A stretch of DNA of 64,000 nt from contig MFRM01000003.1 of NCBI GenBank assembly GCA_001784555.1, positions 65,606-129,605 of the forward strand, read 5' to 3'. Positions 441 through 43,159 of this stretch are shown here, piece after piece. Source of the DNA: Candidatus Melainabacteria bacterium RIFCSPHIGHO2_02_FULL_34_12 (GTDB lineage Bacteria; Cyanobacteriota; Vampirovibrionia; 2-02-FULL-35-15). Under the pieces are notes generated by a model. It saw only the letters and a program-made list of their open reading frames with translations, did not search any database and had not been told where the DNA came from. The position numbers and the translations under genes are program-made. Positions within the stretch are counted from its first letter, which is position 1; the number at the start of each line of letters is the position of its first letter.

Positions 441-1757
441 ATGGACGACCCGGCGTATCGGCGTATCGGCGTATCGGCGAAAAAGAAATTTGCTGATTCG
501 ACTATCCAATATAAATCCCCTGATCACGCAGCTGTTCGAACACAGGAATATTTATATAATCAATTATTTCCGTATATTGGGAATAAACGAAAATTATTGC
601 CATTAATTTTTGAAGCAATATTAAAAACAGAAATAACAAAAGGACTTTTTGTAGATTTTTTTTCCGGAAGCGGTGTAGTCTCACGACTTACAAAAAAAAT
701 CGGCTTTCAGGTTATTGCAAATGACTGGGAGCCGTATTCTTATTTTTATAATCATGCATATATAGAACAAAACGAATATCCTGCCTTTGAAAAACTTGGC
801 GGAATAAAAAAAGTTTATGAATATTTAAATAACCTTGAAGGTATTCACGGATATATAAGTAAGTTTTATTGTCCGTGGAATGATAAAAAACCAGACATAA
901 AAAGAGAAAGAATGTTTTTTACTCATAAGAACGGAATGAAAATTGATGTGATTAGGGAAAAAATAGAAGAATGGGAAAGCAAAGGAAAAATAAACTTAAA
1001 AGAAAAATCCATACTTCTTTCTTCACTTATTTATAGTGCCAGCTATGTAAGCAATACCAGTGGTGTCTTTAAAGGTTTTCATAACGGCTGGGGTGGAAAA
1101 ACAGGGACAGCTTTGTATAGAATATTAAGCGATATTAAATTGGTTCCTCCAATTCTTTTTAATAATAACCAAAAGAACAAGGTTTATCAAAGTGATTCAC
1201 AGAACCTTGCAGAATCGTTTTGTAGAGACGAGGTTACCTCGCCTCTACAAAAAAACAAAATAAATATTGCATATCTTGATCCGCCTTATAATCAGCATCC
1301 TTACGGAAGTAATTACCATGTACTAAATACAATTGCTCTATGGGACAAGCCGAAAATAAACAAATCGATTTTAGTAAATGGTAAAAAAACAAATAAAAGT
1401 GCCATAAGAACTGACTGGAGAACTGAAAGAAGATCAGCATATAACTACAAAAACGAAGCTACAAATGCACTTGAAAAACTGATTACAACAATAGATTCTG
1501 ATCATATTTTAATGAGTTATAGTACAGACGGAATTATTGATCTTAAAGATGTATTAAATATTTTTGCAAGTAATGGAAAACTTTCCATGGTTACAAAAAA
1601 CTATAAACGTTACAGGGTAAGCACACCACGTATGTCTGAAAAACCTTATAACGTAGAGGTCGTTTTTATTCTGGATAAAAATAAAACAAGTTCAAGAGGT
1701 ATTATAAAAAAACTTTTAGGTGAAATTAAAGAACAGGATAAGTGGCTTAGTATGTAG
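441..1757 (+). CDS. D12-class N6-adenine DNA methyltransferase, no neighbouring endonuclease
   Basis: YIGNKRKL, DFFSGSG (SAM motif I) near the N-terminus and YLDPPY (motif IV) near the C-terminus. ATG 441 preferred over TTG 387, which overlaps purA. Confidence 0.88.
   Translation: MDDPAYRRIGVSAKKKFADSTIQYKSPDHAAVRTQEYLYNQLFPYIGNKRKLLPLIFEAILKTEITKGLFVDFFSGSGVVSRLTKKIGFQVIANDWEPYSYFYNHAYIEQNEYPAFEKLGGIKKVYEYLNNLEGIHGYISKFYCPWNDKKPDIKRERMFFTHKNGMKIDVIREKIEEWESKGKINLKEKSILLSSLIYSASYVSNTSGVFKGFHNGWGGKTGTALYRILSDIKLVPPILFNNNQKNKVYQSDSQNLAESFCRDEVTSPLQKNKINIAYLDPPYNQHPYGSNYHVLNTIALWDKPKINKSILVNGKKTNKSAIRTDWRTERRSAYNYKNEATNALEKLITTIDSDHILMSYSTDGIIDLKDVLNIFASNGKLSMVTKNYKRYRVSTPRMSEKPYNVEVVFILDKNKTSSRGIIKKLLGEIKEQDKWLSM
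451..480. repeat. octamer tandem repeat (CGGCGTAT)x3 + CGGCGA in the methyltransferase 5' end
   Basis: cggcgtat cggcgtat cggcgtat cggcga read directly. Confidence 0.9.
1221..1249. repeat. family A REP-like palindrome, in-frame in the methyltransferase (CRDEVTSPLQ)
   Basis: tgtagagacgaggttacctcgcctctaca; differs at two positions from the dapA copy at 33550. Confidence 0.92.
1734..1749. repeat. 16-bp direct repeat, left copy (CAGGATAAGTGGCTTA)
   Basis: Identical to 2341-2356; the pair brackets the ORF6N gene. Confidence 0.9.
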
Positions 1758-5093: not shown

Positions 5094-6026
5094 ATGACAG
5101 GGGAAAATTCAAAAAAAAGTTTAATCTGGGTTTATCCACCAAATAAATGGATTTCGAATTGCAATAAGACATTTGTTTACGGGTGGACAAAACCAGGATG
5201 TAGGTTATATGCAGTCTGTAAAGGCAAAATTAAAAAGATAAAAGTATTTCCAAATGGAAACTTTGCACAAAAAATAAAACTACCACAGAAAAAAAATATT
5301 GTTCAGTTAGTTCAGGTGTTAAACGGAAAAGAAAAAACAATAACAAGATGTGTCATTGCGAGGGAGCAAAGCGACCGAAGCAATCCCGATCGATTTTCGC
5401 GAGGTAGATCGGGATTGCTTCGTCGGCACTTTGTGCCTCCTCGCAATGACATGGTCATCGTCATCGATCCCGGTCATGGTGGCAAAGAACATGGTACACA
5501 CTCACCAAAGGGTGTTCCTGAAAAAGTTTATAATTTACAAATTGCAAAAAACCTCGTACAGGCATTGCACACAACACCCCAACAATGGAAAATTTACCTC
5601 ACTCGTTCTACGGATAAATTTGTCTCTTTAAAAGATCGTGTCCGTTTTGCAAAAAATAAAAAATGTAATTTATTAATCTCAATTCACCACAATGCACTTC
5701 CAGACAATGAAGATCCACTTAAGCATAGAGGAGTCGGGATTTATTACACACATGATTTTGTAAAACCACTTGGAAAATCACTACTAGAAAGTATTTCAAA
5801 ATCTGTAAGGGCACGCCATGGCACGCCCTTACAAAAATACGGTTTGTATAAAAGAGATTTCGCACTTACAAAACCTGACTTTTGTCATGCAGTGTTAATT
5901 GAATGTGGATTTTTAATTCATCCGGTAGAAGGAGAAATTATTACACAAAAAAATACACAGAAAAAAATTGTAACCGGTGTAAAAAAAGCCTTATTTACTT
6001 TTTACCGTCGACAACCACTTAAGTGA
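5094..6026 (+). CDS. N-acetylmuramoyl-L-alanine amidase (Amidase_3) carrying three repeat-derived segments
   Basis: IDPGHGG, EK, SIHHNA and LIECGF zinc/catalytic motifs. Confidence 0.9.
   Translation: MTGENSKKSLIWVYPPNKWISNCNKTFVYGWTKPGCRLYAVCKGKIKKIKVFPNGNFAQKIKLPQKKNIVQLVQVLNGKEKTITRCVIAREQSDRSNPDRFSRGRSGLLRRHFVPPRNDMVIVIDPGHGGKEHGTHSPKGVPEKVYNLQIAKNLVQALHTTPQQWKIYLTRSTDKFVSLKDRVRFAKNKKCNLLISIHHNALPDNEDPLKHRGVGIYYTHDFVKPLGKSLLESISKSVRARHGTPLQKYGLYKRDFALTKPDFCHAVLIECGFLIHPVEGEIITQKNTQKKIVTGVKKALFTFYRRQPLK
5351..5451. mobile_element. family B 101-bp MITE-like element, in-frame in the amidase
   Basis: Terminal inverted repeats TGTCATTGCGAG / CTCGCAATGACA and inner pair GAAGCAATCCCGATC / GATCGGGATTGCTTC. 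Confidence 0.9.
5556..5584. repeat. degenerate family A copy in the amidase (VQALHTTPQQ)
   Basis: gtacaggcattgcacacaacaccccaaca aligns with gtagaggcgttgcgcgcaacgcctctac (32301), mostly by G>A changes. Confidence 0.6.
5804..5833. repeat. family A palindrome in the amidase (VRARHGTPLQ)
   Basis: tgtaagggcacgccatggcacgcccttaca. Confidence 0.88.
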
Positions 6027-13575: not shown

Positions 13576-13653
13576 ATATTTAGGTTCAAAATCACAAAAT
13601 GATACCCATGGTTACATGCATTTTAACCCTTGCAGAATATAATCACATGGCAA

Positions 13654-14226
13654 ATGGAATCAAATTATAATCCTGCGATTCACCATAGGCGATCAATTCG
13701 ATTAAAAGAATTTAATTATTCACAAAATGGTTATTATTTTATTACAATTTGCACAAAAAACAGAGAATGTTATTTGGGCAAAATTATAAATAAAAAAATG
13801 ACATTATCCAATGAAGGAAAAATTGTTTTGCAATATTGGAATGAATTACCAAATCACTTTTCAAATGTTGGTTTGGATGAATATGTAATAATGCCAAATC
13901 ATTTGCACGGAATTATTGTTATTGAAAACGATTTGAATAATGACAATCGTAATGCGCAATGTAGGGGCGGGGTTACCCCGCCCCTACAACATTACACATT
14001 GGGTCAAATCATTGCATATTTGAAATATCAAACAACAAAAACAATAAATCAATTTTATAAAACCCCCGGCAAACCATTCTGGCAACGCAATTATTATGAA
14101 CACATAATCCGTAATGAATCAGAATTAACCCGTATTCATGAATACATTAGAAATAATCCTATACAATGGGAATTTGACAGGAATAACCGAAAAAACATTG
14201 CTAGAATAAATAATCACAATATATGA
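13654..14226 (+). CDS. REP-associated HUH/Y1 tyrosine transposase (RAYT, IS200/TnpA superfamily)
   Basis: HHRRSIRL..YS..GYYFITIC, MPNHLHGII (HUH), WQRNYYEHIIR..YIRNNP..W (catalytic Tyr); stop overlaps the mnmA ATG. Confidence 0.93.
   Translation: MESNYNPAIHHRRSIRLKEFNYSQNGYYFITICTKNRECYLGKIINKKMTLSNEGKIVLQYWNELPNHFSNVGLDEYVIMPNHLHGIIVIENDLNNDNRNAQCRGGVTPPLQHYTLGQIIAYLKYQTTKTINQFYKTPGKPFWQRNYYEHIIRNESELTRIHEYIRNNPIQWEFDRNNRKNIARINNHNI
13960..13988. repeat. family A palindrome inside the RAYT gene (CRGGVTPPLQ)
   Basis: tgtaggggcggggttaccccgcccctaca, perfect stem. Confidence 0.95.
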
Positions 14227-17388: not shown

Positions 17389-17853
17389 ATGATTACTTTA
17401 ATCCAAAGAGTAACATCTGCAAAAGTAACCATCGAAAATAAGGTTACAGGCAATATAAAAAATGGGCTGCTTCTATATATAGGCTTTGAAGATGGAGACA
17501 ACTTAGAAAAAATAAAATGGTCCATTAATAAAATAATTAACCTTAGAATATTTGCAGATAAAGAAGACAAGATGAACCTTTCTCTTCTGGATATAAAAGG
17601 AGTAGGGGCGTATCGCGATACGCCCTTACTATTGGTGATTTCAAATTTCACTCTCCCGGCTGATTTAAATGAATCAGGCAGAAGACCTTCATTTACAAAA
17701 TCAGCCAGCCCGGAAATAGCAGAAAATCTCTATAATCAGTTTATAGATGAGTGTAAAAATCAAAATATAAATGTAGCTCAAGGAAAATTCGGCGCCATGA
17801 TGGATATTGAATCTGTAAATGATGGACCGGTTAATTTCATATTAAAAAGATGA
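17389..17853 (+). CDS. dtd: D-aminoacyl-tRNA deacylase
   Basis: IQRV..A.V, NLRIF.D...KMNLS, SNFTL, GRRPSF, GKFGAMM, NDGPV. Confidence 0.96.
   Translation: MITLIQRVTSAKVTIENKVTGNIKNGLLLYIGFEDGDNLEKIKWSINKIINLRIFADKEDKMNLSLLDIKGVGAYRDTPLLLVISNFTLPADLNESGRRPSFTKSASPEIAENLYNQFIDECKNQNINVAQGKFGAMMDIESVNDGPVNFILKR
17601..17630. repeat. family A palindrome in dtd (VGAYRDTPL)
   Basis: agtaggggcgtatcgcgatacgcccttact. Confidence 0.92.
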
Positions 17854-19678: not shown

Positions 19679-20197
19679 ATGGCAATACTACAGGTTCATC
19701 AATTTCCCGATCCAATCTTAAAAAAAATCTGTGCTCCTGTTACAGATTTCGATTCAAAATTAAACTCATTTGTAAATGACTTCACAGAAACCCTGCAAAG
19801 TCATAATTTTTGCGTGGGGCTGGCTGCTCCACAGGTAGGAAATCTTCAAAGAATAATTGCAATAGATGTTTCAAGAGCCAGAAAACCACAGCTGGGAAAC
19901 GGACTTTTAATTTTAATAAATCCAGTGATTCTTGAATCTTCAAATTTTAAATTTGTAAGGGAAGGATGTCTTAGCATTCCGGATTTCACAGCAAACGTAA
20001 AACGCGCCATGAAGATTACAGTGCAATATCAAGAATATTGTAGAGACGCGCCGCGGCGCGTCTCTGATAAGGTATTGGAAACAACCAATTTTGAAGCACA
20101 TGCCATTCAGCATGAAATGGATCATCTGGATGGAATTCTTTTTCTGGACAGAATTACAAATCCAGCCAGTGATTTGTTTAGAAGAAAGAGAGCTTAG
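19679..20197 (+). CDS. def: peptide deformylase
   Basis: GLAAPQVG, EGCLS, QHEMDHLDG. The ORF-track start at 19661 comes from the repeat end. Confidence 0.96.
   Translation: MAILQVHQFPDPILKKICAPVTDFDSKLNSFVNDFTETLQSHNFCVGLAAPQVGNLQRIIAIDVSRARKPQLGNGLLILINPVILESSNFKFVREGCLSIPDFTANVKRAMKITVQYQEYCRDAPRRVSDKVLETTNFEAHAIQHEMDHLDGILFLDRITNPASDLFRRKRA
20039..20066. repeat. family A palindrome in def (CRDAPRRVS)
   Basis: tgtagagacgcgccgcggcgcgtctctg. Confidence 0.92.
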
Positions 20198-24299: not shown

Positions 24300-25718
24300 A
24301 TGAAACAAGTCTACATAGAAACCTTTGGATGTCAGATGAATAAAGCAGATACAGAGCATATGCTTGGACTTCTGGATGAAATTGATTATAAACATACAGA
24401 AAATATTGAAGAAGCTAATCTTGTTTTGTTTAATACTTGTACAATTCGTGAAACAGCAAATCATAAATTTTACAGTCAGCTTGGCATTGTTGGAAAAATG
24501 AAAAAGCAAAGATGTAGAGACGGGGTGACCCCGTCTTTACTGCTTGGAGTAGGGGGTTGTGCAGCCCAGGATAAAAAAGAATGGCTGATTAAAAACTTTC
24601 CTTATGTAGATATTGTATTTGGCACAAATAATATTCAAAATTTACCTGAGCTTGTAAAAAAAGCTGAGAGCGGTAAAAAAGTCTGTGAGATAGAAGAAGA
24701 GCTTCCGTATGAGTTGCCTGAACTGCCTGTAATCCGTCAGACTAAGGTTAGCGCATGGGTAAATGTAATTCTTGGATGTAATTTTAATTGTACTTATTGC
24801 ATAGTTCCCAGTGTTCGCGGAAGAGAAAAAAGCAGAAAGCCTGAAGATATTTTAAAAGAAGTTGAAAGGCTTGCAGAAGAAGGATTTAAGGAAGTCACGT
24901 TACTTGGGCAGAATGTAACTGCTTATGGTTATGATCTTTCATCAAACTACTCAAAAGAAAAAGCCACATTCGGTCACATACCAGATGATCCTGAATATTC
25001 ACTTGCAAAGCTTATTAGATATGTTCATGACGTAGATGGAATTGAAAGAATAAGATTTTTAACAGGGCATCCATTTCATGTAACTGACGAGCTCATAGAT
25101 ACAGTAGCAGAGCTTCCTAAAGCATGCGAATACTTTCACATTCCCATGCAATCTGGAGATAACACAGTTTTAAAGCGAATGGCTAGAGTTTATACTGTAG
25201 AAAAATATAAAGAGATGGTAGAGAAAATTAGAAATAAAATGCCAAGTAGAGGCGTATTGCAATACGCCCATGCTGCAATCACAAGCGATTTTATAGTAGG
25301 TTTTCCTGGTGAGACAGAGGAGCAGTTTTTAAATACAGTAAAAATTGTTAAAGAAATTGGATTTGATGGGTGCAATACAGCAGCATATTCACCCAGACCC
25401 GATACCCCAAGCGCTACATGGGATAAACAAATTCCTGAGGAAGAAAAAAATGCAAGACTTAGATATTTAAACTCTGTTGTAAATGAAGTAGTAGGGATTA
25501 AAAATAAAGATCTTTTGGATACAATTCAGGAAGTTTTAGTAGAAGGTACAAGTAAGCGAAATGAAAACAATTTGAGCGGCAGAACGCGGGGAAATACAAT
25601 TGTTAATTTTGATCCTACAATGGCGGGTTTTAAACCCGCCATTGTAGGCACATTGGTAAATATAAAAATAACAAAGGTAAAACGATGGGCTCTTGATGGT
25701 GAGGTGGTAGGCAATTAA
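24300..25718 (+). CDS. miaB: tRNA-i6A37 methylthiotransferase
   Basis: TFGCQMN, NTCTIRE, GCNFNCTYCIVP (radical SAM), DFIVGFPGET, C-terminal TRAM domain. Confidence 0.96.
   Translation: MKQVYIETFGCQMNKADTEHMLGLLDEIDYKHTENIEEANLVLFNTCTIRETANHKFYSQLGIVGKMKKQRCRDGVTPSLLLGVGGCAAQDKKEWLIKNFPYVDIVFGTNNIQNLPELVKKAESGKKVCEIEEELPYELPELPVIRQTKVSAWVNVILGCNFNCTYCIVPSVRGREKSRKPEDILKEVERLAEEGFKEVTLLGQNVTAYGYDLSSNYSKEKATFGHIPDDPEYSLAKLIRYVHDVDGIERIRFLTGHPFHVTDELIDTVAELPKACEYFHIPMQSGDNTVLKRMARVYTVEKYKEMVEKIRNKMPSRGVLQYAHAAITSDFIVGFPGETEEQFLNTVKIVKEIGFDGCNTAAYSPRPDTPSATWDKQIPEEEKNARLRYLNSVVNEVVGIKNKDLLDTIQEVLVEGTSKRNENNLSGRTRGNTIVNFDPTMAGFKPAIVGTLVNIKITKVKRWALDGEVVGN
24513..24540. repeat. family A palindrome in miaB, first copy (CRDGVTPSL)
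   Basis: tgtagagacggggtgaccccgtctttac. Confidence 0.9.
25246..25273. repeat. family A palindrome in miaB, second copy (SRGVLQYAHA)
   Basis: gtagaggcgtattgcaatacgcccatgc; same core as 38356. Confidence 0.88.
25614..25648. repeat. 35-bp perfect palindrome in the miaB TRAM domain, with reversed CTAC...GTAG ends
   Basis: cctacaatggcgggttt-t-aaacccgccattgtagg (17-bp arms). Confidence 0.9.
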
Positions 25719-32008: not shown

Positions 32009-32026
32009 TATTCAATAATAACATTT

Positions 32027-32053
32027 ATAGAGACTTAGTAACTATGTCTCTAC
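32027..32053. repeat. family A palindrome upstream of apbC
   Basis: Minus strand reads GTAGAGACATAGTTACTAAGTCTCTAT. Confidence 0.7.
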
Positions 32054-32096
32054 TACAAGCGTTGATTCATGGTGATATTACTAAAACAAAAATTTA

Positions 32097-32183
32097 TTAG
32101 CTAATTGATCTAAATACACCAATTACAATTGCCATTATTACTATGAATCCGTGAAGTCCAAATTTTTCAATTACGTTTTGCAT
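32097..32183 (-). CDS. possible 28-aa hydrophobic peptide
   Basis: MQNVIEKFGLHGFIVIMAIVIGVFRSIS* preceded by AGTAGGA. Confidence 0.4.
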   Translation of the reverse strand: MQNVIEKFGLHGFIVIMAIVIGVFRSIS

Positions 32184-32299
32184 AAAATTTTCCTACTACT
32201 ATATTTATAAAGATATTTCTTTAAGAACTTGATAAGTAACCTGAAAATCTTATACCCGCTGTTACAGTGGTTTTAACTGATTCTTAACCTTAACCAAAT

Positions 32300-32329
32300 A
32301 GTAGAGGCGTTGCGCGCAACGCCTCTACT
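32300..32329. repeat. family A perfect palindrome just after the asd stop
   Basis: agtagaggcgttgcgcgcaacgcctctact. Confidence 0.95.
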
Positions 32330-32336
32330 GCAAACA

Positions 32337-33380
32337 TTAATTTTTCTTGCTAAGCAAAAGAGATTCTTTTAGCAATACCTCTGCAATTCTTACTGCATTC
32401 AGCGCTGCACCTATTCGTAAATTATCAGCTACTATCCAGAGATTAAAAGTGTTTGGATTAGATTTATCTTCCCTTATACGTCCGACATAAACAGGATCTG
32501 TTCCTGCAATATCAATTGCCATGGGATATTTCTCAGAGGATGGATCATCAATAATTTCAATTAGAGGCATTGCACGCAATGCCCTTACAATGTCATCGCG
32601 AGATATTTGTTTTTCAAACTCTACATTCACGCTTTCGCTATGACCGATATAAACCGGCACACGTACTGCCGTACAGGTAATTTTTAAATTTGGTAAGCCT
32701 AAGATTTTTCTTGATTCATTAATTACTTTTATTTCTTCTTTCGTATACCCATCATCAGAAAAAACATCTATATGAGGGATGACATTAAATGCAAATTTTC
32801 TGTTTGTTGAGACGTTGCACGCAACGTCTTTACCTTGCAAGATATTTTTTGATTGCTCTGTAAGTTCATCCATGGCTGCTTTTCCAGCACCTGAAACGCT
32901 TTGATAAGTGCTAACTATTACTCTTTTTAATCCTGCAAGATCTTGAAGAACTTTTAAAGGTGGCATAAGCTGTGCTGTCGTACAGTTTGGATTTGCAATT
33001 ATGCCTTTGTGTTTTTTTAGATCATGGTTATTTACACCTGCAACTACAAGTGGCACATCAGGATCCATGCGATATGCAGAGCTATTATCCACTACCACTG
33101 CACCAGATTTCACTGCATGCGGGACAAGTTCTTTACTTATCGTTCCACCTGCTGATGCTAAAACCAGATCAATACCATTAAAGCTGTCTTTAGTAGCAAG
33201 CTCAACAGTGTATTCTTTTTCTTTAAATTTTACTTTCGTTCCGGCAGATTTTTTACTGGCAAGAAGTTTTAGATTTTTAATCGGAAAATTTTTCTCTTCA
33301 AGAACTTCAAGAAATTTACGACCTACATTGCCTGTGGCTCCCAAGATAGCAAGATTTACGCCTGATTCATTATTCACCAT
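32337..33380 (-). CDS. asd: aspartate-semialdehyde dehydrogenase
   Basis: GATGNVG, VDNSSAYRM, IANPNCTT, TYQSVSGAG, RVPV..GHS, DNLRIGAA. Confidence 0.97.
   Translation of the reverse strand: MVNNESGVNLAILGATGNVGRKFLEVLEEKNFPIKNLKLLASKKSAGTKVKFKEKEYTVELATKDSFNGIDLVLASAGGTISKELVPHAVKSGAVVVDNSSAYRMDPDVPLVVAGVNNHDLKKHKGIIANPNCTTAQLMPPLKVLQDLAGLKRVIVSTYQSVSGAGKAAMDELTEQSKNILQGKDVACNVSTNRKFAFNVIPHIDVFSDDGYTKEEIKVINESRKILGLPNLKITCTAVRVPVYIGHSESVNVEFEKQISRDDIVRALRAMPLIEIIDDPSSEKYPMAIDIAGTDPVYVGRIREDKSNPNTFNLWIVADNLRIGAALNAVRIAEVLLKESLLLSKKN
32561..32589. repeat. family A palindrome in asd (VRALRAMPL)
   Basis: ttagaggcattgcacgcaatgcccttaca. Confidence 0.85.
32806..32833. repeat. family A palindrome in asd (GKDVACNVST)
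   Basis: gttgagacgttgcacgcaacgtctttac. Confidence 0.85.
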
Positions 33381-33501
33381 ATAGGTATATTACAATAAAA
33401 TAACCCTGTAGCAACCTACATTTTGAAGAATATGATTTTAATTCTAAACAAAACATAAAATTCATTGACGATTGTTTCAAATCAATATATATTAATTTCA
33501 T

Positions 33502-34416
33502 ATGCAAAACCCATTTGGTCAAGTTTTAACAGCAATGATCACACCTTTTTGTAGAGGCGAGGTAACCTCGCCTCTACAAATAGATTATGAAGGCACTGAA
33601 AAATTAATTGACCATTTAATTAAGACTGGAACAGACACAATCATAGTTGCTGGCACTACAGGTGAAAGTCCTACCTTATCTCATGAAGAAGAAAGAGAAC
33701 TTTGCAAATTTGTACAAAAAACTACGGGCAAAAAAATTAAAATAATTCTAGGTGCAGGTTCTAATTCCACAGCAACTGCAATTGAATCCACAAAAGAAGC
33801 AGAAAAATTAGGCGTAGATGGAGTACTTTCTGTAGTTCCTTATTACAACAAACCAAATCAAAGAGGACTTATTGAACATTTTAGTCAGATTGCAAAGTCT
33901 ACAAGTCTGCCAATTATTTTGTATAACATTCCAGGTCGTACTGGAATAAATATGGAGCCTCAAACAGCAGCAGAACTTGTCAGTAAATTTAAAAATATAA
34001 TTGGATATAAAGATGCTACAGGTAATCTGGAAAATACCAGCCAAGTAATACAATTAGCACCAAAAGGATTCCTTATATATAGCGGGGATGACAGCTTAAC
34101 CCTTCCAATGTTATCTATAGGAGCTGTTGGTGTTATAAGCGTAGCCAGTCATATTGTTGGAAATGAAATTAAGGATATGATAAATTCTTTCTTTACGGGT
34201 AAAATAGATAAAGCAAAAGAGATTCATAACAAACTTTTTCCTTTATTTAAAGCATTATTTAAGGCACCAAATCCTACATGTATAAAAGCAGCACTGGAAA
34301 TAAAAGGAATATGCAAATCAGATTTAAGATTGCCACTTGTAAAATTAACTGAAAAAGAATTAGCTGAATTAAAAATGGTGATTGAAAAAATAGAAAATCA
34401 ATTAATCAAGGCATAA
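33502..34416 (+). CDS. dapA: 4-hydroxy-tetrahydrodipicolinate synthase
   Basis: TAMITPF, GTTGESPTL, PYYNKP, LYNIPGRTG, GYKDA, YSGDD. Confidence 0.97.
   Translation: MQNPFGQVLTAMITPFCRGEVTSPLQIDYEGTEKLIDHLIKTGTDTIIVAGTTGESPTLSHEEERELCKFVQKTTGKKIKIILGAGSNSTATAIESTKEAEKLGVDGVLSVVPYYNKPNQRGLIEHFSQIAKSTSLPIILYNIPGRTGINMEPQTAAELVSKFKNIIGYKDATGNLENTSQVIQLAPKGFLIYSGDDSLTLPMLSIGAVGVISVASHIVGNEIKDMINSFFTGKIDKAKEIHNKLFPLFKALFKAPNPTCIKAALEIKGICKSDLRLPLVKLTEKELAELKMVIEKIENQLIKA
33550..33578. repeat. family A perfect palindrome in dapA (CRGEVTSPLQ)
   Basis: tgtagaggcgaggtaacctcgcctctaca. Confidence 0.95.
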
Positions 34417-34424
34417 ACAGATTT

Positions 34425-34453
34425 CCCGCCACAGGCGGGTCCGCCTAGGGCGG
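34425..34453. repeat. tandem GC mini-hairpins after dapA (possible terminator or repeat)
   Basis: cccgcc-aca-ggcggg then tccgcc-tag-ggcgga; a similar cccgcctttggcggg sits in the 19561 element. Confidence 0.7.
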
Positions 34454-34502
34454 AAAAAACCGGAAAATTCCATCAACATCTGTGTTGATATCGGTAATTA
34501 AA

Positions 34503-34529
34503 TGTAGGGGCATACCAATGTGTTTGCCC
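34503..34529. repeat. family A subtype GTAGGGGCAAAC..ATGTGTTTGCCC, intergenic
   Basis: tgtaggggcataccaatgtgtttgccc; same subtype at 43839 and 63185. Confidence 0.8.
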
Positions 34530-34544
34530 AGTGAAACAAAAAAG

Positions 34545-34570
34545 TTTGGGCTTGCTACAGCAAGCCCAAA
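34545..34570. repeat. 12-bp-stem hairpin just upstream of the rnj ribosome-binding site
   Basis: tttgggcttgct-ac-agcaagcccaaa. Confidence 0.75.
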
Positions 34571-34589
34571 AAGAGGGAAACAATAAACA

Positions 34590-36377
34590 ATGACTAAGAA
34601 TCCAGCAAATACCGAAGAAAAAAAAATCCGCAAAGTAATAAAGCGTGGTGATGACACAGTAGTAGTTACCAAAGGTGAAACCAGCTTAAACGGACATGTA
34701 CCAATAGTCCCCGGATCAAAAGTAAAAGTTATTCCTCTGGGCGGAATGTGTGAAATTGGAAAGAATACCTGGATTATTGAATATGAAGATGAAATGGTTC
34801 TTATAGATGGCGGACTTGCATTCCCTTCAGATGCCATGCCTGGCGTCGAAATAGTTCTGCCTGACATAAGTTATCTGGTTCAAAACAAAAATAAAATTAA
34901 AGGACAAGTTATTACTCACGGACATGAAGATCATATTGGCGGGATTGTGCCTATGCTGAAACAATTTGACATTCCAATAATTTATGGTCCGTCACTGGCA
35001 ATAGGACTTCTGGAAGAAAAACTAAAAGATGCACAGCTTTCTGACAGAACATCTCTTCATAAAGGAAGACCAAGACAAACTTTTAAAATTGGTTCTCTTG
35101 CATTTACTTATACAAGGAATACCCACTCCATAGCTGATAGTTTTTGTCTTATAATTCATACTCCATGCGGAAAAATTGTTCATTCAGGAGATTTTAAATT
35201 TGATTTTACTCCTGTAGATGGAGAGTTTTTTGATGTTTATACCCTAGCAAAAGCTAGTGAAGAAGGAGTTTTACTTTTAATTAGTGACAGTACAAATGTG
35301 GAGAGAGAAGGATATACTCCGTCTGAAAGATCTGTATATGGAAGACTTGAAGAAGAATTTAACAAAGCTCCAGGGCGAATAATAATTACTACATTTGCAT
35401 CACAAGTTCATAGAATAAGACAAATACTTGATATCTGCATTAAAGCAAATAAAAAAGTTGCAATTTTCGGGCGTTCAATGCTTCTACTTGCAACTATTTC
35501 AAGAGAGCTTGGACACATGAAATTTCCAGATGGACTTTTGGTAAACCTGGAAGATTTAAATAAATTGCCCGATGAAAGGACTGTGATTCTTACTACAGGT
35601 TCACAGGGTGAACCGCTTTCAGCACTTACAAGAATGGCATTTGATGAACACAGACAGGTAACCATTCAGCCTAAAGACACTGTAATTATTTCCGCTACAC
35701 CGATTCCTGGGAATGAAAGAGCAGTAGCAAATGTTGTAAATGCCTTAAGCGCTAAAGGTGCCCATGTAGTTTATGGCAGAGAATCAGGTGTACACGTTTC
35801 AGGTCATGCCTGCCGCGAAGAACAAAGAATGCTTTTAAATATTGTAAAACCAAAATATTTCCTTCCTGCTCACGGTGAATACCGAATGCTTGTGCTGCAT
35901 GGAAATGTAGGCGTGGAATGCGGTGTAGATCCAAAAAATGTTTTTCTAATGGAAAACGGTGATGTGCTTGAACTTACAAGCGAATCAGCAAAATTAAACG
36001 GTCAGGTTCCGGCAGGAATAATTATGGTAGATAGTACACGCGTGGGCGATGTAGATGAACATATTATTGAACAAAGGCATAAGCTGGCATCTGAAGGATT
36101 GCTTAGTATTTTACTTACTATAAAAGATAAAAAATCTCTGGCAGAGCCTATTATTGAAGCTAAGGGACTGGTCTTAGCACAAGAAGACAATACTCATGGA
36201 CAGTTTATAAATGATGCAAAGAAAATGGTGATTAAAACTATAAGTGATTTCTTTGAAAAAAACGAAAAAGATATAGAAAAATTAAAAGAAAAGGTTAAAG
36301 CTGAATTAATAAAACTAGTTCATGCAGAGCTTAAAAGGGAACCTTTACTTCAGGTTATTATACTAGAATCTAAATAA
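34590..36377 (+). CDS. rnj: ribonuclease J
   Basis: PLGG..EIGKN, THGHEDHIGG, HSGDFKFD, TGSQGEP, HVSGH, PAHGEYRML. Confidence 0.97.
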   Translation: MTKNPANTEEKKIRKVIKRGDDTVVVTKGETSLNGHVPIVPGSKVKVIPLGGMCEIGKNTWIIEYEDEMVLIDGGLAFPSDAMPGVEIVLPDISYLVQNKNKIKGQVITHGHEDHIGGIVPMLKQFDIPIIYGPSLAIGLLEEKLKDAQLSDRTSLHKGRPRQTFKIGSLAFTYTRNTHSIADSFCLIIHTPCGKIVHSGDFKFDFTPVDGEFFDVYTLAKASEEGVLLLISDSTNVEREGYTPSERSVYGRLEEEFNKAPGRIIITTFASQVHRIRQILDICIKANKKVAIFGRSMLLLATISRELGHMKFPDGLLVNLEDLNKLPDERTVILTTGSQGEPLSALTRMAFDEHRQVTIQPKDTVIISATPIPGNERAVANVVNALSAKGAHVVYGRESGVHVSGHACREEQRMLLNIVKPKYFLPAHGEYRMLVLHGNVGVECGVDPKNVFLMENGDVLELTSESAKLNGQVPAGIIMVDSTRVGDVDEHIIEQRHKLASEGLLSILLTIKDKKSLAEPIIEAKGLVLAQEDNTHGQFINDAKKMVIKTISDFFEKNEKDIEKLKEKVKAELIKLVHAELKREPLLQVIILESK

Positions 36378-37211: not shown

Positions 37212-38174
37212 TTACATAATCAATCCATTCAAATACTCGTCAAAATCAAATTCTACGATGTCGTCTATTTGTTCACCTGTTCCTATAAATTTTACAGGTA
37301 GAGAAAGTTTGTTCATAATATTTAAAATCACACCGCCCTTTGCAGAACTGTCGAGCTTAGAAAGAATAATGCCGGTAAGTCCAATGGCTTTTGAAAATAA
37401 TTCTGCCTGAACAATTGCATTTTGACCAATCGTGGCATCCAGTACGATTAGCTTCTCAAGATTTGGAGCCATGCCAAGGCATGGCTTTACAAATTTTTCG
37501 ATTATAGAATTTATTTTCCGCAATTCATCCATGAGATTAATCTGTGAATGTAATCTCCCTGCAGTATCAATGAGGACAACATTAAAATTTTCATTTTTTG
37601 CTTTCTTAAGCGCAGCATAAACTACAGCATCTGGTTTTTTAACCTCAGGAGGTGAAAATATTTCTGCTTCTGCTCGCTTTGCCCATACATCAAGCTGTTC
37701 TCCTGCAGCTGCACGAAAGGTATCTCCTGCCACGATTAAAACTTTTTGTTTGCCATCTTTAAATCTCCTTGCAAGTTTGCCTATAGATGTGGTTTTACCG
37801 GAGCCGTTTACACCGACGATTAAATAAATTCCGTTTTGAAGGTGGGGTCCCGGGACTTCACCTTCGGGTAATTGTGATTTTATTGTTTCCTTTATTTTTT
37901 CTTGTAATTTATTTTTTTCAATCTGTAAGGGCGTGCCATGGACTGCCCCTACTTTTATATTCTTCTTTAATTCATTAATAATTTTTTCAGACAGCTCAAG
38001 ACCTACATCAGCTTTAATGAATTTTTCTAAAAGACTGTCATAGAATTCTTCATCAACATTTATGTTTATATTCTCTGTCGTAGGGACGTAGCGAGCTACG
38101 TCCCTACGGGTTTTTGATAATGCTTCTTTTATCTTGAATATATTATTTTCCAACCACTTCTTCATCTTAAGCAT
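37212..38174 (-). CDS. ftsY: signal recognition particle receptor FtsY
   Basis: ADVG, VGVNGSGKTTSIGKLA, GDTFRAAA, DTAGRLH, DATIGQN, SKLDSSAKGG, GTGE. Confidence 0.96.
   Translation of the reverse strand: MLKMKKWLENNIFKIKEALSKTRRDVARYVPTTENININVDEEFYDSLLEKFIKADVGLELSEKIINELKKNIKVGAVHGTPLQIEKNKLQEKIKETIKSQLPEGEVPGPHLQNGIYLIVGVNGSGKTTSIGKLARRFKDGKQKVLIVAGDTFRAAAGEQLDVWAKRAEAEIFSPPEVKKPDAVVYAALKKAKNENFNVVLIDTAGRLHSQINLMDELRKINSIIEKFVKPCLGMAPNLEKLIVLDATIGQNAIVQAELFSKAIGLTGIILSKLDSSAKGGVILNIMNKLSLPVKFIGTGEQIDDIVEFDFDEYLNGLIM
37463..37491. repeat. family A palindrome in ftsY (VKPCLGMAP)
   Basis: Minus strand tgtaaagccatgccttggcatggctccaa. Confidence 0.82.
37837..37866. repeat. GTCCCGGGAC-core palindrome in ftsY (EGEVPGPHLQ)
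   Basis: gaaggtggggtcccgggacttcaccttc; related copy at 38488. Confidence 0.8.
37924..37953. repeat. family A palindrome in ftsY (VGAVHGTPLQ)
   Basis: tgtaagggcgtgccatggactgcccctact. Confidence 0.87.
38079..38108. repeat. family A perfect palindrome in ftsY (RRDVARYVPT)
   Basis: cgtagggacgtagcgagctacgtccctacg. Confidence 0.95.
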
Positions 38175-38187: not shown

Positions 38188-39657
38188 ATGGTTAACAAGG
38201 ACTCCATTGCATTACTCCCTCTAGACGACCGTCCAGTTTCTTATCTACTTCCAAAACAAATTGCTGATTTTTCAGGAGTAAATTTAATTTTACCTGAGAG
38301 AAAATATCTTGGTGATTTAAATCATGGATCTGATTTGAAATATATTGATAATTGGTGTAGGGGCGTATTGCAATACGCCCCTACATTTGTTGTTTCATTG
38401 GACAGCTGGGTTTACGGTGGATTGGTTCAATCAAGAAAACACGATTTCACATTAGACGAATTAAAGAAACGTGTTAGTGCACTCGCGGGAGGCGAGGTCC
38501 CGGGATCTCGCCTGCAGAATGTTTATGGATTTTCATCCATAATGCGAATCCCAAATTATAATTCCAGCGAAGAAGAAAAAGATTACTGGAAAGACTATGG
38601 AGAAAGTATTTTTAAGTGGTCTGAGCTTATGCATAAAGTAGGAAGAGGGATTACTGAAAAAGGAACATCTCATGAAGAGCTGCTGGAAAAATGGTATGAG
38701 AGTTCAAAATCAATTCCAGTGAACGTTCTGGCTGATTATAAAAGACACAGAGATAAAAACCTTACGGTTAATTTGCTTTGGATCGAACTGTCACATGATA
38801 AATGTTTTGAATGTTTAATTTTTTCATGTGACGATTCTTCTAGATATGGAATGAATGTAATTGAAGCTGAATATATTAAACGAGAAATTAAAAAGCACAG
38901 ATTTTCAGATCTAGCTAAAGTAATTTCAGGCACTGATGAAATATCTCTTGTTCTTATGACTAAAGCAAATCTTAAATCACAAGACAAAAAACCTTCTCTA
39001 TGTCTTTTCTTTAACAGCATTGAGGGTAAAACCCAGATCCCAAGATATGAATCAAATACAATACATGAATCTATTAAAGATCAAATAGATACTTTAGGGC
39101 TTGAAATAAAAGATTTAAATGAATCTGATATTTTAGTTTGTATTCATCTTTCAGATTCAGTCCAGGGAGATCATATTTTTAAAATTAAACCCTGCGACAC
39201 TTCAAAAAATATTGAAGAGCTAAAGAATATGCTTGAAAAAATTAATAAGCCTTTTATTCTGATAGATCTTGCATATGCAAACGGATCAGATCCACAGCTC
39301 ATAGAAGCACTGATAAATTCAAAAATCAACTGGGACCATTGTTACGGTTATGCAGGCTGGAATACCTGCTCAAACAGCACTGGTTCAGCTCTAGCAATAG
39401 GAATAAACAGGTGGATTGCTGAAAAAAATAGTTCCTTTAATAAGATTGCATTTAAAAAATGTCTTCTTACAAGATTTTTAGATGATTATGCATATCAGGC
39501 TCAGATAAGACATGTTGGTATTACAGAAAAAGAGATAAACAAAAAAATAATGCCACATGTTCAGGCATTTTCAAAACTTTTAGGAATAAATGATATAAAG
39601 GTAAAATGTTCACTGCCATGGAAAAGAACATTTGAAGCAGAGATCGATGTCATATAA
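38188..39657 (+). CDS. DUF4127-like protein
   Basis: LPLDDRP, SLD..VYGGLVQSR, FSSIMR, GTDE, DLAYANGSD, YAGWNTCSNSTG, RFLDDYAYQA. Confidence 0.8.
   Translation: MVNKDSIALLPLDDRPVSYLLPKQIADFSGVNLILPERKYLGDLNHGSDLKYIDNWCRGVLQYAPTFVVSLDSWVYGGLVQSRKHDFTLDELKKRVSALAGGEVPGSRLQNVYGFSSIMRIPNYNSSEEEKDYWKDYGESIFKWSELMHKVGRGITEKGTSHEELLEKWYESSKSIPVNVLADYKRHRDKNLTVNLLWIELSHDKCFECLIFSCDDSSRYGMNVIEAEYIKREIKKHRFSDLAKVISGTDEISLVLMTKANLKSQDKKPSLCLFFNSIEGKTQIPRYESNTIHESIKDQIDTLGLEIKDLNESDILVCIHLSDSVQGDHIFKIKPCDTSKNIEELKNMLEKINKPFILIDLAYANGSDPQLIEALINSKINWDHCYGYAGWNTCSNSTGSALAIGINRWIAEKNSSFNKIAFKKCLLTRFLDDYAYQAQIRHVGITEKEINKKIMPHVQAFSKLLGINDIKVKCSLPWKRTFEAEIDVI
38356..38385. repeat. family A perfect palindrome in the DUF4127 gene (CRGVLQYAPT)
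   Basis: tgtaggggcgtattgcaatacgcccctaca. Confidence 0.95.
38488..38516. repeat. GTCCCGGGA-core palindrome in the DUF4127 gene (GGEVPGSRLQ)
   Basis: ggaggcgaggtcccgggatctcgcctgca. Confidence 0.8.
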
Positions 39658-41308
39658 ACAAAAAATTCATAAAGAAATCAAAAAAGCCTTAAACGGTGAA
39701 TCTGATTTGGTTTATTTAGAACGTACAAAACTAAAAGAACATGGTGATGTTTCAACAAATATTGCAATGGTACTGGCAAAAAAGCAAAAAAGAAATCCAC
39801 TTGATATTGCAAATGAGCTAAAAGAAAAAATAAAAGCAGATGGCAGTTTAATCTCACATATAGAAGTAGCAAAACCTGGTTTTGTAAATTTTGTAGTCGG
39901 AGATTATGCACTTAGTGAGTCTTTAGTTGAGGTTATTAATATTGGAGATAAATTTGGCTTTGCGCCTGAAAAATCAAAAGAAGAAACATTAGTGGAATAT
40001 GTTTCTGCAAATCCAACCGGAGATTTACACATCGGTCATGGAAGACAGGCAGTGATTGGAAGTTGTTTAGTAAATCTTTTAAGCGCAGCAGGATATGACG
40101 TAAAAAGTGAGTTTTACATAAATGATTTTGGCGAACAAATACAAAACCTCTCAGACACTGCATGGGCAATACATTGTAAATTAAACGGAGAAAATGTCCA
40201 GTGGAAAGAAGATTTTTATCCTGAAGATTTATTATTGCCGTACGTGAAGAAAATTGTAGGGGCTTACTGCAGTAAGCCCCAGCAGCAATTGACGAAAGAA
40301 ATCCTTGGACAAGAAATAAAAGATTTAATTTTAAAATCACAGGAAGAGCTGCTTTCTTCTCTAAAGATAAGTTTTGATAAATGGCATAGTGAAACAGATC
40401 TGCATACTCGTGGAGAAGTTAAAAATACACTTAAAAAACTAAAAGAGTCTGGCATTACATACGAGCATGAAGGAGCCATATGGCTTAAGGCACAAGAACT
40501 TGGAGATGTAAGAGACAGAGTGCTAGTAAGATCTGACGGGCGAAGTACTTATTTGCTGGCAGACGTTGCATATCATATTAATAAATTTAAACGCAGTACA
40601 AAACTAATTACCCTATGGGGTGCAGATCACCATGGACAGGAAGTTGGACTAAAAGGTGCTTTAAAGGTTCTTAAATATGATGAAAACAAGCTTGAAATAA
40701 TTTTTGTGCAGATGGTTAGCTTAAAAAAAGAAGGACAGGAAATAAAAATGTCCAAGCGCGCCGGGACAGTAGTTACTGTAGATGAAGTATTAAATGAAGT
40801 AGGCCCCGATGCTTTTAGATATTTTCTGGTTGAAAGTCATCCTAACCATAGAATGATTTTTGATATTGATTTAGCTAAAAAACAAGATAAAGATAATCCT
40901 GTTTATTACATCCAGTATGCCCATGCAAGATGTTGCAGTATTTTTAGACAAATTACAGATGACATTAAAAAAGAGGAGGTGCTAAAAAAGTGCACGATAA
41001 GCCCTGATGTTTTTATGTATTTATTTAAAGCTAATAATCAGGAGTACTCAGCCACTAAATCTCTTATTTTACGGATTCTTGATTTTCCTGAAGAAGTTCT
41101 AAATTCGGCTGAGAGCAGATCGCCTAGCAGAATTGCTAATTATTTAAAAGAACTGGCTACAGATTTCCATCAATTTTATACAGTTTGTCGTGTAATATCA
41201 AAAGATATAAATTTAACCGAAGCCAGATTAGGTCTGGTCGAAACAGTAAAAATAACAATTGCAAACGGTTTAAAAATACTAGGTATCAATGCACCTGAAT
41301 CAATGTAA
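39647..41308 (+). CDS. argS: arginine--tRNA ligase
   Basis: HGD.STNIAM, PGFVNF, VEYVSANPTGDLHIGH, WGADHHG, KMSKRAG, NPVYYIQYAHAR, APESM. Confidence 0.97.
   Translation: MSYKQKIHKEIKKALNGESDLVYLERTKLKEHGDVSTNIAMVLAKKQKRNPLDIANELKEKIKADGSLISHIEVAKPGFVNFVVGDYALSESLVEVINIGDKFGFAPEKSKEETLVEYVSANPTGDLHIGHGRQAVIGSCLVNLLSAAGYDVKSEFYINDFGEQIQNLSDTAWAIHCKLNGENVQWKEDFYPEDLLLPYVKKIVGAYCSKPQQQLTKEILGQEIKDLILKSQEELLSSLKISFDKWHSETDLHTRGEVKNTLKKLKESGITYEHEGAIWLKAQELGDVRDRVLVRSDGRSTYLLADVAYHINKFKRSTKLITLWGADHHGQEVGLKGALKVLKYDENKLEIIFVQMVSLKKEGQEIKMSKRAGTVVTVDEVLNEVGPDAFRYFLVESHPNHRMIFDIDLAKKQDKDNPVYYIQYAHARCCSIFRQITDDIKKEEVLKKCTISPDVFMYLFKANNQEYSATKSLILRILDFPEEVLNSAESRSPSRIANYLKELATDFHQFYTVCRVISKDINLTEARLGLVETVKITIANGLKILGINAPESM
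40255..40284. repeat. family A palindrome in argS (VGAYCSKPQQ)
   Basis: tgtaggggcttactgcagtaagccccagca. Confidence 0.9.
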
Positions 41309-42301: not shown

Positions 42302-43159
42302 TTAATATCCCGGAAGCAAGCTTCCGGATTTTACACTTCGCTCAAATATAAACAAACATCTATCTAATTTAGAATAATCTTTTACAATTTCAAAACTGTT
42401 TAATCCTTTTGATTTCAGCAGTTTTATTAAATCATTCACAAGAGATGGATCTATTTCTAATGCAATCAAACGTTTATTGTCATTGCGAGGAGCAGTTATC
42501 AATTCAAATATCCTCTCATAATATATTAATCCTGAATTATTTTCTTTTGAGCCGACAAGTGCAATCTTAGGTTCATGAAGCACAACCTCGGGTCTTAATT
42601 TCTTCATTTCGCTTGATTTCACGTAAGGTGGATTTGAGATTATTAGATCAAAATTATTTCTATTTAATATTTCTTCCATGCCATTAGAAAATACATCACA
42701 TACCTCAAATTTTATTTTCTCCGAAACATTGTTTTTCTCAGCATTTTCTCTGGCTAAATTTATAATGTCTTCATTTACATCTATTGCAATGATTTTTATA
42801 TCCGGAATTAATCTGGCAAGTGCAATTGCAATGATGCCAGAGCCAGTGCCTATATCCAATGCCGTAGGGACATGCCGCGGCATGTCCCTACTATTGATTA
42901 ACCTTCTCACCGTTTCTTCAACTAGAATTTCAGTCTCAGGTCTAGGTATCAAAACATTTTTATCGACTTTTACTTCAAAATCCATAAAATAAGCTTTTCC
43001 AAGAATATACTGAATAGGGATTCTTGTTTTTATTCTTTCTGAAATAATTTTTTTTATTTGTTCAGAATCTTTTAATTCCATAAGTAATATGGAAATTTCT
43101 TTTTTTGCTTCCTGAGGCTCTATTCCTGCAGAAATTAGTTTTTCAATTAATTCTTCCAT
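42302..43159 (-). CDS. prmC: release factor glutamine methyltransferase
   Basis: PIQYILG, VLIPRPETE, LDIGTGSG, ISNPPY, HEPKIAL. Confidence 0.95.
   Translation of the reverse strand: MEELIEKLISAGIEPQEAKKEISILLMELKDSEQIKKIISERIKTRIPIQYILGKAYFMDFEVKVDKNVLIPRPETEILVEETVRRLINSRDMPRHVPTALDIGTGSGIIAIALARLIPDIKIIAIDVNEDIINLARENAEKNNVSEKIKFEVCDVFSNGMEEILNRNNFDLIISNPPYVKSSEMKKLRPEVVLHEPKIALVGSKENNSGLIYYERIFELITAPRNDNKRLIALEIDPSLVNDLIKLLKSKGLNSFEIVKDYSKLDRCLFIFERSVKSGSLLPGY
42479..42493. repeat. family B terminal remnant in prmC (APRND)
   Basis: gtcattgcgaggagc. Confidence 0.7.
42864..42891. repeat. family A perfect palindrome in prmC (SRDMPRHVPT)
   Basis: gtagggacatgccgcggcatgtccctac. Confidence 0.95.

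Follow-up and report, generated by a model that had tools for sequence, protein, structure and literature searches.

A 64-kb stretch of a Melainabacteria-like draft genome (G000:C3:65606-129605, hereafter the window) contains short GC-rich palindromes that lie in frame inside protein-coding genes, among them the divergent neighbours asd and dapA. The palindromes are a lineage-specific family of GTAG-type repetitive extragenic palindromes (REPs), belonging to one bacterial family. Within genes their copies appear usually to take the place of host codons instead of being added to them, a departure from the insertion generally assumed for such repeats, as argued by net gains that spread from 0 to +9 codons, length-neutral overwrites confined to a single lineage, sites that were hit again and intergenic spacers that did not grow. 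The genome that carries the window, G000, comprises 2.11 Mb in 26 contigs with 34% GC, and its genes were crude open reading frame (ORF) calls with a coding density of 90.6%. The nearest named relatives of its Asd protein belong to Candidatus Melainabacteria bacterium (76-77% identity), followed by Candidatus Obscuribacterales (58-59%). Net values given below are codons gained relative to repeat-free relatives at the aligned site, and "neutral" is used in the same sense.

The asd gene (32337..33380, minus strand) is intact and encodes an aspartate-semialdehyde dehydrogenase (ASADH) of 347 residues, with matches to Pfam Semialdhyde_dh (E 8e-34) and Semialdhyde_dhC (E 6e-50) and to the solved ASADH structures 2yv3 and 8juo (E 1e-84). 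Its catalytic-type invariant columns are kept, with C133 and H247 among the columns invariant in 24 sequences. Around its two repeat-encoded stretches the protein reads ISRDDIVRALRAMPLIEIIDDP and NILQGKDVACNVSTNRKFAFNVIP. The REP at site 1 (32561..32588) has 10 of 14 arm pairs, is partly decayed and encodes V265-L273 (VRALRAMPL), while the one at site 2 (32806..32833; 11/14 arm pairs) encodes K184-T192 (KDVACNVST). The outer arms are decayed in both, and the predicted DNA hairpins reach -6.4 and -7.2 kcal/mol, respectively. A further copy, a perfect 28-bp palindrome with 14/14 pairs (hairpin -14.4 kcal/mol, z -6.0), is intergenic and lies directly downstream of the asd stop codon, at 32301..32328.

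Alignment of Asd with 29 orthologues (11 from the same family, at 74-81% identity, and 18 from other families) showed that site 1 is ungapped against 28 of them (L005, +2) and against 2yv3 and 8juo, for a net of 0 codons. At the codon level the nine site-1 codons are wholly unlike those of repeat-free relatives, and the flanks align. Site 2 represents a gain of +1 codon against most relatives and both solved enzymes. Both segments had been judged near normal in length in the first-pass annotation, made from the letters of the window, and the orthologues and solved structures agree; the peptides and coordinates that it gave for Asd and DapA were exact. Structure prediction, one of the checks proposed with it, was carried out with AlphaFold2 for Asd (24 sequences; mean predicted local distance difference test score, pLDDT, 85.6). 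In this model V265-L273 is predicted to close helix 261-270 and to make the turn that leads to strand 274-276 (pLDDT 93-97), and site 2 lies in a low-confidence loop (pLDDT 38-67).

The dapA gene (33502..34416, plus strand), also intact, encodes a 4-hydroxy-tetrahydrodipicolinate synthase (DHDPS) of 304 residues (Pfam DHDPS, E 3e-95) that matches the solved enzyme 5ktl (E 2e-84) and in which K170 and Y141 are invariant among 29 sequences. Around its repeat-encoded stretch it reads TPFCRGEVTSPLQIDY. The REP (33550..33578) has 14/14 pairs within a perfect 16-bp stem over 33548-33580, a DNA hairpin of -17.0 kcal/mol (z -9.7), and encodes CRGEVTSPLQ at a net gain of +5 codons. The nine aligned repeat-free DapAs of the family read TPF-K[SND]DLS-IDF and G000 reads TPF-CRGEVTSPLQ-IDY, so that five native residues are gone and the loop has passed from 5 to 10 residues; the nine bear out the normal loop of about five residues given in the first-pass annotation. 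Against the solved enzymes 5ktl and 6t3t the loop is longer by +5/+6. Judged from these alignments, DapA is best described as a half-replacement and not as length-neutral.

Contigs from sequencing runs of three other studies cover the asd and dapA repeat sites with 0 differences to the window (for example X2 record 5, 30974-34203). The three asd and dapA repeats are thus not an assembly artefact, because these identical contigs cross them. The organism is represented in the runs of at least four studies. In runs X4 and X7, contigs of a co-occurring relative omit 2 nt at 32807, within Asd site 2, and also differ at nearby positions (32778, 32937-32979); a second allele of Asd site 2 exists in nature.

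The cases that carry most weight are in the genes for the glutamyl-tRNA synthetase GluRS and for AnmK. One REP in GluRS and two in AnmK are present in G000 only; at the same places G001, G003, G006, G007, G008 and G010 have equal lengths of unrelated, AT-rich sequence. In GluRS, SRDEVASSLR replaces S-x-G-E-N-Q-K-x-x-S with a net of 0; at the first AnmK site FRDLPRQVCT replaces F-N-K-S-K-N-I-K-A-I, also with a net of 0, and the second AnmK site (VRACHGVPLL) shows +1. About 22 of 27 nt in AnmK differ from all six relatives at once. Solved structures gave similar values (AnmK against 3cqy, 0 and +1; GluRS against 2cfo and 6b1p, +1), and because such distant structures agree in length, the host segments of the relatives are taken as native structure and not as remnants of older copies. 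With the argS, def and dtd copies described below, six copies were seen in G000 alone, at 0, 0, +1, +4 (ArgS), +6 (Def) and +8 (Dtd) codons, and these values cover the full range and do not cluster at +9/+10.

The substitution of native residues by repeat peptides, which was the central claim of the first-pass annotation, thus stands for Asd (0, +1) and is extended to AnmK and GluRS (0, 0, +1), but it describes only half of what is found in DapA (+5) and does not describe ArgS or TsaC, both of which had been thought length-neutral. The argS copy adds +4 codons (+5 against G007), and tsaC (15476-16009) contains no family member with at least 10/14 pairs; the repeat-bearing gene near it, of 198 residues, encodes a transposase resembling REP-associated tyrosine transposases (RAYTs).

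Palindromes were scanned for as GC-rich sequences with arms of 14+14 nt and scored by the number of arm pairs out of 14. The window holds 34 with at least 10/14 pairs, against 1-8 in five block shuffles, and the whole of G000 holds 162 with at least 12/14 pairs, against 2-4 in three block shuffles. The family unit has 28 bp and consists of GTAGRGRC, a variable self-complementary centre of 12 nt, and GYCYCTAC. The GTAG and CTAC ends are exact in 67 of the 162 G000 palindromes, and 123 fit the ends GTAGRGRC/GYCYCTAC with at most 3 mismatches in 16 positions. These 123 family copies are distributed as 70 genic (57%, in 63 genes), 18 at gene edges and 35 intergenic. Strict matches to GTAGRGRC-N12/13-GYCYCTAC number 62, of which 56 have 28 bp and 6 have 29 bp; all positions are paired in 35 of them, and about 45 different centres occur, self-complementary all the same. 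Every repeat-carrying ORF is open, in line with the remark in the first-pass annotation that many cores are 28 bp and frames nevertheless intact. Genic copies favour the two frames that avoid the TAG within GTAG (phases 45, 22 and 3), and the encoded peptides take the forms V-G/E-A/T-x4-P/S-L-L or x-R-G/D-x5-P/S-T. The repeats have a GC content of 50-75%, against 34% for the genome, and Rfam 15 gave 0 matches at gathering score in the 64-kb window. At least one extra pair beyond the 28-bp core was found in 52% of cases against 34% expected; outward extension of the palindrome was considered as a sign of one arm copying the other, and was not built on, the excess being modest.

G000 has 56 matches to the strict 28-bp pattern, which is also present in nine of 11 same-family genomes (52, 44, 16, 12, 8, 5, 5, 3 and 3 copies), being absent from same-family G005 and G009, which are 89% and 79% complete. 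Outside the family it was found once, in one of 29 genomes representing nine other families of the class, and the reversed pattern, used as a control, gave 0 matches in every genome scanned. RAYT-like genes follow a similar distribution across the same 41 genomes: they were detected in 8 of 12 family genomes and in 1 of the 29 others, and were not found in the four family genomes with the fewest repeats (3, 5, 0 and 0). This co-distribution of the repeat family and RAYT-like genes indicates that the elements are GTAG-type REPs with RAYT-like partners.

The RAYT-like gene of the window (13630..14226, plus strand) encodes a Y1 (HUH) transposase of 198 residues (Pfam Y1_Tnp, 29.8 bits, cut-off 23) and has a REP inside it at 13960-13988. 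A paralogue, G000:C12:3895-4398, is 40% identical. When the two proteins are aligned, the HUH (MPNHLHGII) and Tyr (WQRNYYEHIIRNE) stretches can be recognised in both. Each intact gene carries one GC-rich family palindrome internally, in the same loop after the HUH motif. The syntenic stretches of G002, G007 and G008 have the flanking genes but lack an orthologue of the window gene. Two more RAYT-like matches in G000, at C3:250200-250688 and C3:134024-134260, are partial or stop-interrupted.

For a genome-wide measure of length change, G000 was compared with G007, a genome of the same family with only 3 strict copies (2.276 of 2.383 Mb used; 1347 reciprocal-best orthologues), and the net change at each site was taken as the length difference between the nearest well-aligned anchors. 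Among 89 genic palindromes 70 were scored and 19 were unscorable; the scored ones comprised 54 of the GTAG family and 16 non-family palindromes that were set aside, and one family site was dropped for a palindrome at that place in G007. The 53 remaining family sites gave single values of -26, -9, -5, -3, -2 and -1 codons, six of 0, four of +1, five of +2, five of +3, four of +4, seven of +5, six of +6, four of +7, two of +8, three of +9 and one of +10, with a median of +4. In bins, five sites are at -2 or less, eleven at -1 to +1, thirty-three at +2 to +8 and four at +9/+10, with none above. The gain expected of a plain insertion (+9/+10) is therefore found at just 4 of 53 sites. As a control, 3000 random 10-residue windows of the same proteins were scored, of which 85.9% were unchanged and 4.6% were at +3 or more. 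The perfection of the palindrome had no effect (median net 4, 3 and 5 for 14, 13 and 12 paired positions). Intergenic DNA gave a comparable picture, in that 28 REP-bearing syntenic spacers differed from those of G007 by a median of +3 nt, against +2 nt in 777 controls (Mann-Whitney p 0.89); when the controls were shifted by +28, the difference had a p of 0.01, which disfavours such a shift.

Eight extra sites were inspected in segments of 301 nt taken from as many as five additional relatives. In the acyl-CoA dehydrogenase gene G000, G003 and G007 agree in length at the repeat site, and G001, G006 and the solved structures 1jqi and 4l1f are 8 codons shorter; the G007 segment (VEKLKEKGLP, against AETLHATSLP in G000) is for this reason regarded as an old, AT-decayed copy, and the true gain as +8. 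One of the "+9" sites, locus L367 (G000:C3:46135-47220), consists of a REP whose right half is duplicated twice in tandem behind it (LLQQVST three times); in G001, G006 and G008 the site holds one REP and is 4-6 codons shorter than in repeat-free G003 and G007. GC content was tried as a marker of old remnants in G007 and was uninformative (0.316 in low-net segments, 0.325 in the background), this test being blind to old remnants because the one proven remnant is also AT-rich (0.24). Repeat peptides resemble the residues that they replace, with a mean score of -0.8 against -9.1 for shuffled pairings (standard deviation 1.6; reached in 0 of 2000 shuffles), a likeness that may be due in part to remnants and in part to selection.

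Many sites are occupied in more than one genus. Comparison across genera covered 21 sites; at 15 of them the corresponding codons of another genus hold a REP or the remnant of one, often built on a different centre. The codons of Asd site 1 also hold palindromes in G001 (same centre) and G008 (other centre); at the position of Asd site 2, G006 has a decayed copy and G008 a perfect one of another subfamily; and decayed REPs are found at the DapA site in G001 and G008. G010 has a REP at a site occupied in G000, and its congeners G006 and G011 are without one. A four-protein tree with repeat columns masked placed G000 with G003+G007 (support 97), G001 with G008 (87) and G006 with G010 (100), and the approximately unbiased (AU) test, with the same masking, rejected a clade of G000+G001+G008 (p 0.016). 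The repeat sites thus look like hot spots that were hit and re-written repeatedly. Recurrent gain or allele exchange is likelier than one inherited insertion, because repeat-free relatives still have the ancestral loop (for instance KSDLS in DapA), a sequence that could not come back if a replacing element were excised.

The explanation that we favour as a whole, by a narrow balance, is that REPs overwrite target tracts, with the family maintained by RAYT-like enzymes, selection acting on frame and fold, and hot spots being re-written. The family would be kept up by RAYT-like HUH tyrosine transposases, and a copy would be written over its target tract with the loss of about 1-28 nt of host sequence at the same place in one event, probably by a RAYT-like enzyme acting at the conserved ends. 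In essential genes only in-frame, fold-compatible outcomes would survive, and net gains would hence range from 0 (Asd helix, AnmK, GluRS) through +5 (DapA loop) up to +8 or +9; some sites would be struck separately in several genera, and copies with other centres would later re-write them. Coupling of insertion and deletion in one step would be the simplest reading of the neutral cases seen in a single genome together with in-frame 28-bp units in essential genes, as a unit of 28 bp entering asd, dapA, argS, ftsY or def would cause a frameshift unless the length were adjusted in the same event. We infer from this that replacement took one step, and from the co-distribution described above that a RAYT-like enzyme is a plausible agent. 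A stronger version, in which RAYT-like enzymes themselves cut and replace, is put forward tentatively: guided by GTAG/CTAC, they would swap a target of up to about 28 nt for a hairpin cassette with no added length, the ends serving as recognition and the centre as cargo, and the same reaction would re-write occupied sites and, at hot spots, overwrite naive coding sequence.

The same data could be read as a history of two steps, which we consider unlikely, in which a clean in-frame insertion of 27 or 30 nt (+9-10 codons) was followed by selective trimming of neighbouring host codons, the palindrome being kept by re-writing or by arm-to-arm correction. With 15 of 21 sites common to several genera many copies may be old enough for this, four sites do stand at +9/+10, the acyl-CoA dehydrogenase copy is at +8 with decayed relatives persisting in G003 and G007, and the pairing past the core would give a unit of 30 bp. 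However, the copies found in G000 alone are not near +9/+10, no trend with palindrome perfection is seen, and background indels are so rare in the control windows that the loss of 1-10 codons beside 49 of 53 copies would imply a greatly increased local rate of deletion that spares the palindrome; at Asd site 1, nine helix codons would have been inserted and nine deleted without a trace in 29 orthologues. Rather more doubtful is copying without a transposase, by a stalled or broken nascent strand that switches to a REP hairpin by microhomology and returns variably downstream, with RAYT-like genes merely travelling along. The variable length of the lost tract, the lack of a target duplication and the spacers that do not grow would all be expected, and the right end YCTAC often falls on host TCTAC, CTA or TTA codons (in TldD/PmbA-like paralogues, Asd site 1 and DapA), but such Leu and Ser-Thr codons are common in an AT-rich genome and microhomology is unscorable at this divergence. 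Repeat counts also track the presence of RAYT-like genes, and conserved ends with free centres (about 45 among 62) fit recognition of the ends by a protein.

An origin in place, through mutation bias or selection for an mRNA or DNA hairpin and with no change of length at any time, would account for the neutral cases and for the resemblance between repeat peptides and replaced residues. It is very improbable, given that unrelated loci in several genomes share the same 8-nt ends and centre variants, that the repeats are far richer in GC than the genome, that about 22 of 27 nt set AnmK apart from all six relatives at once, and that most sites change length, no Rfam family matching the window. Least credible is that the net lengths are noise of variable loops or that the palindromes are assembly errors: the ftsY linker, a methyltransferase and the second DUF4127 site do vary in length among repeat-free relatives, but such relatives agree within one codon at Asd, DapA, Dtd, Def, ArgS, AnmK and GluRS, the control windows are stable, three other studies yielded identical contigs, and genomes that were assembled independently share orthologous copies.

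Several points weigh against replacement in one step by a RAYT-like enzyme. A strain-level pair of empty and filled alleles was not found in the metagenome scan with Asd or in the contigs from other runs: the scan returned no same-species variant of asd, only two close relatives at 79-80% identity, and contigs from four other runs compared with window positions 24000-43900 held no repeat-free allele, being either identical or from relatives below 95%, the 2-nt difference at 32807 apart. The junctions are unreadable to the base, because the closest comparators differ by 19-26% in Asd protein. The genome-wide distribution depends on one comparator (G007) and crude ORF calls, and it is somewhat biased low, one false zero having been found among 14 cross-checked sites; that zero, the acyl-CoA dehydrogenase site, is void because the comparator holds a decayed old copy. 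The eight extra sites were chosen for extreme values and are a non-random sample, and among them the "+10" site has truly gained between +10 and +15 codons, which exceeds the element itself. The spacer test is weak, with a bootstrap 95% interval of the median shift of -25 to +36 nt. The group rejected by the AU test was chosen in the light of a first tree, and inner branches are short; with many sites common to several genera, there may have been time for later trimming. As to the enzyme, the window protein and its C12 paralogue match NCBIfam REP_Tyr_transpos at E 3e-17 (62.8 bits) and E 2.5e-19 (69.6 bits), both below the curated cut-off of 80, and no family REP lies beside either intact gene, which differs from the REPtron arrangement.

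Beside asd and dapA, seven further repeat-bearing genes of the window were aligned with syntenic 20-kb stretches from ten relatives, and the 13 sites so compared have net values of 0 to +8, with +9/+10 at none. The REPs in dtd (D-Tyr-tRNA deacylase; 17602..17629, net +8) and def (peptide deformylase; 20040..20067, net +6) are lacking in G001, G002, G007 and G008, and the one in argS (gene 39632-41308; REP 40256..40283) is lacking in G001, G002, G003 and G007. A MiaB-like radical-SAM gene (24300-25718) has a REP at 24513..24541 (net +6/+7; decayed copy in G001), another at 25246-25273, and a palindrome of another type at 25617-25645 (+5). In ftsY (37212-38174) the REP at 38079..38108 is neutral against G002 and G011, and REPs with other centres stand at the same place in G001, G006 and G010; additional copies are at 37462-37491, 37838-37865 and 37925-37952, and the second ftsY site sits in a linker whose length is too variable for scoring. 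The DUF4127 gene (38134-39657) has a perfect REP at 38357..38384 (net +1) and another site at +2 to +5. Contigs from other runs break exactly at 38357-38384; the identical 28-mer is multi-copy in those metagenomes, and summed depth around it rises to as much as 575. A perfect REP at 42864..42891 lies in a region of variable length (+1 to +5) of a methyltransferase gene (42302-43159).

Two more copies were scored against G007, one in a D12-class adenine methyltransferase gene (387-1757; REP 1221..1249, +8) and one in an N-acetylmuramoyl-L-alanine amidase gene (5094-6026; REP 5805..5832, +6). REPs are thus borne by two methyltransferase-like genes, the D12-class N6-adenine gene and the PrmA/PrmC-like gene at 42302-43159. 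All 17 window palindromes with at least 12/14 pairs lie before 43 kb; the part from 44000 to 64000 has no family member at that level, and its GC content is about 30%, against 34-37% elsewhere in the window.

Other repeat types were also observed in G000. A second, rarer repeat measures about 70-105 nt, its terminal inverted repeats (GTCATTGCGAG...CTCGCAATGAC) enclosing a central palindrome of 28 bp that includes CGATCG. Its five copies lie outside the window (C3:262129, C6:165, C6:108232, C26:60067 and C26:103649), four of them in frame in genes; the three scorable genic copies add +12 to +29 codons, with peptides like ARSDSDEAIPIGIASP...ARND, and G007 has one copy. These look like plain additions, unlike the 28-bp family. 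A third palindrome type, GAAGGYGRGGT...ACCYCRCCTTC, is found in frame in genes, with peptides EGEVxxPxLQ, at window positions 37838-37865 and 38488-38515 and at C3:58440, C25:13148 and others. A fourth type, CCGCC...GGCGG, is at 34426-34453 between dapA and the RNase J gene, where depth spikes to at most 175 in the contigs from other runs.

Several known systems combine hairpins with mobility or with in-frame repeats. Transposons of the IS200/IS605 type have an HUH tyrosine enzyme, recognition of hairpins, a tetranucleotide at the cleavage or target site and no target duplication; their insertion is clean, 3' of the target tetranucleotide, and costs no target DNA, unlike that of the copies described here. 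Rickettsia palindromic elements (RPEs), described by Ogata and co-workers in 2000, have about 100-150 bp and make clean in-frame insertions of 30-50 residues, and they are not known to have a cognate transposase. By that definition the present family differs, having a unit of 28-29 bp, a median gain of 4 codons and mostly substitution; the second repeat of G000 is closer to the description. Cyanobacteria, the sister lineage of these bacteria, carry small dispersed repeats (SDRs), reportedly presented by Elhai and co-workers in 2008 as hairpin-forming mobile repeats of 21-27 nt with compensatory changes in the stem. The idea that SDRs replace sequence was dropped as unsupported, SDR5 being inserted precisely between the third and fourth HIP1 nucleotide (PMC4390886); that is a clean targeted insertion, unlike the replacement seen here.

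The closest likeness is to the systems of REPs, or of REP doublets forming hairpins (REPINs), with RAYTs, of the GTAG type (Nunvar 2010; Bertels & Rainey 2011; Di Nocera 2013, PMC3733652). Common to both are a short GC-rich, GTAG-tagged hairpin in tens to hundreds of copies, restriction to one bacterial lineage, as vertical inheritance predicts, co-occurring Y1/HUH RAYT-like genes, and intergenic copies directly downstream of genes, such as the one after asd. The present family departs from the mainly extragenic location of such systems, 57% of its copies being intragenic and in frame; it also has GTAG within the stem on both strands, a perfect 28-bp palindrome and hypervariable centres, and its RAYT-like genes each contain a REP and have none beside them. 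Intragenic in-frame REPs are known from Opitutus terrae and Rickettsia conorii, and they are treated there as inserts "decorating" proteins (PMC3733652), unlike the codon-replacing copies found here. The same paper mentions RPEs. These resemble the present family as in-frame palindromic repeats in genes, housekeeping genes included, whose function is apparently kept. According to the REPORTH preprint, extragenic REPINs of Pseudomonas switch type where they occupy orthologous sites and "may be overwritten"; RAYTs, it adds, "can modify or replace REPINs"; the re-writing of sites in G000 and its relatives looks like that process, by analogy, with coding sequence as the substrate. REP/RAYT systems, in-frame intragenic REPs and RPEs are therefore known already, and what is new is a REP family in Melainabacteria-like bacteria, its intragenic predominance, measured codon replacement that includes the neutral cases of Asd, AnmK and GluRS, and hot spots at the codon level across genera. 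No report of codon-replacing REPs, or of REPs in Melainabacteria, was found in the literature searched, most subscription journals being outside its scope.

REP/REPIN-RAYT systems are among the commonest bacterial repeats, and to our knowledge the route by which a REP copy reaches a new place has not been established. Intragenic copies provide a ruler for this, as the reading frame and the conserved length of the protein show codon by codon what the arrival of a copy cost. Replacement of host codons agrees with a recent proposal in which REPINs at fixed sites are overwritten by RAYTs. If it is true, the footprint expected of REP mobility would change, the persistence of these elements without inflating compact genomes would be explained, and segments of essential enzymes would be swappable for repeat-encoded peptides. 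If the enzyme acts alone, it would be a small DNA-replacing activity of interest; cut-and-replace, if borne out, would amount to short-patch DNA writing as a natural activity, and Asd, among other essential enzymes, would contain helices encoded by selfish DNA.

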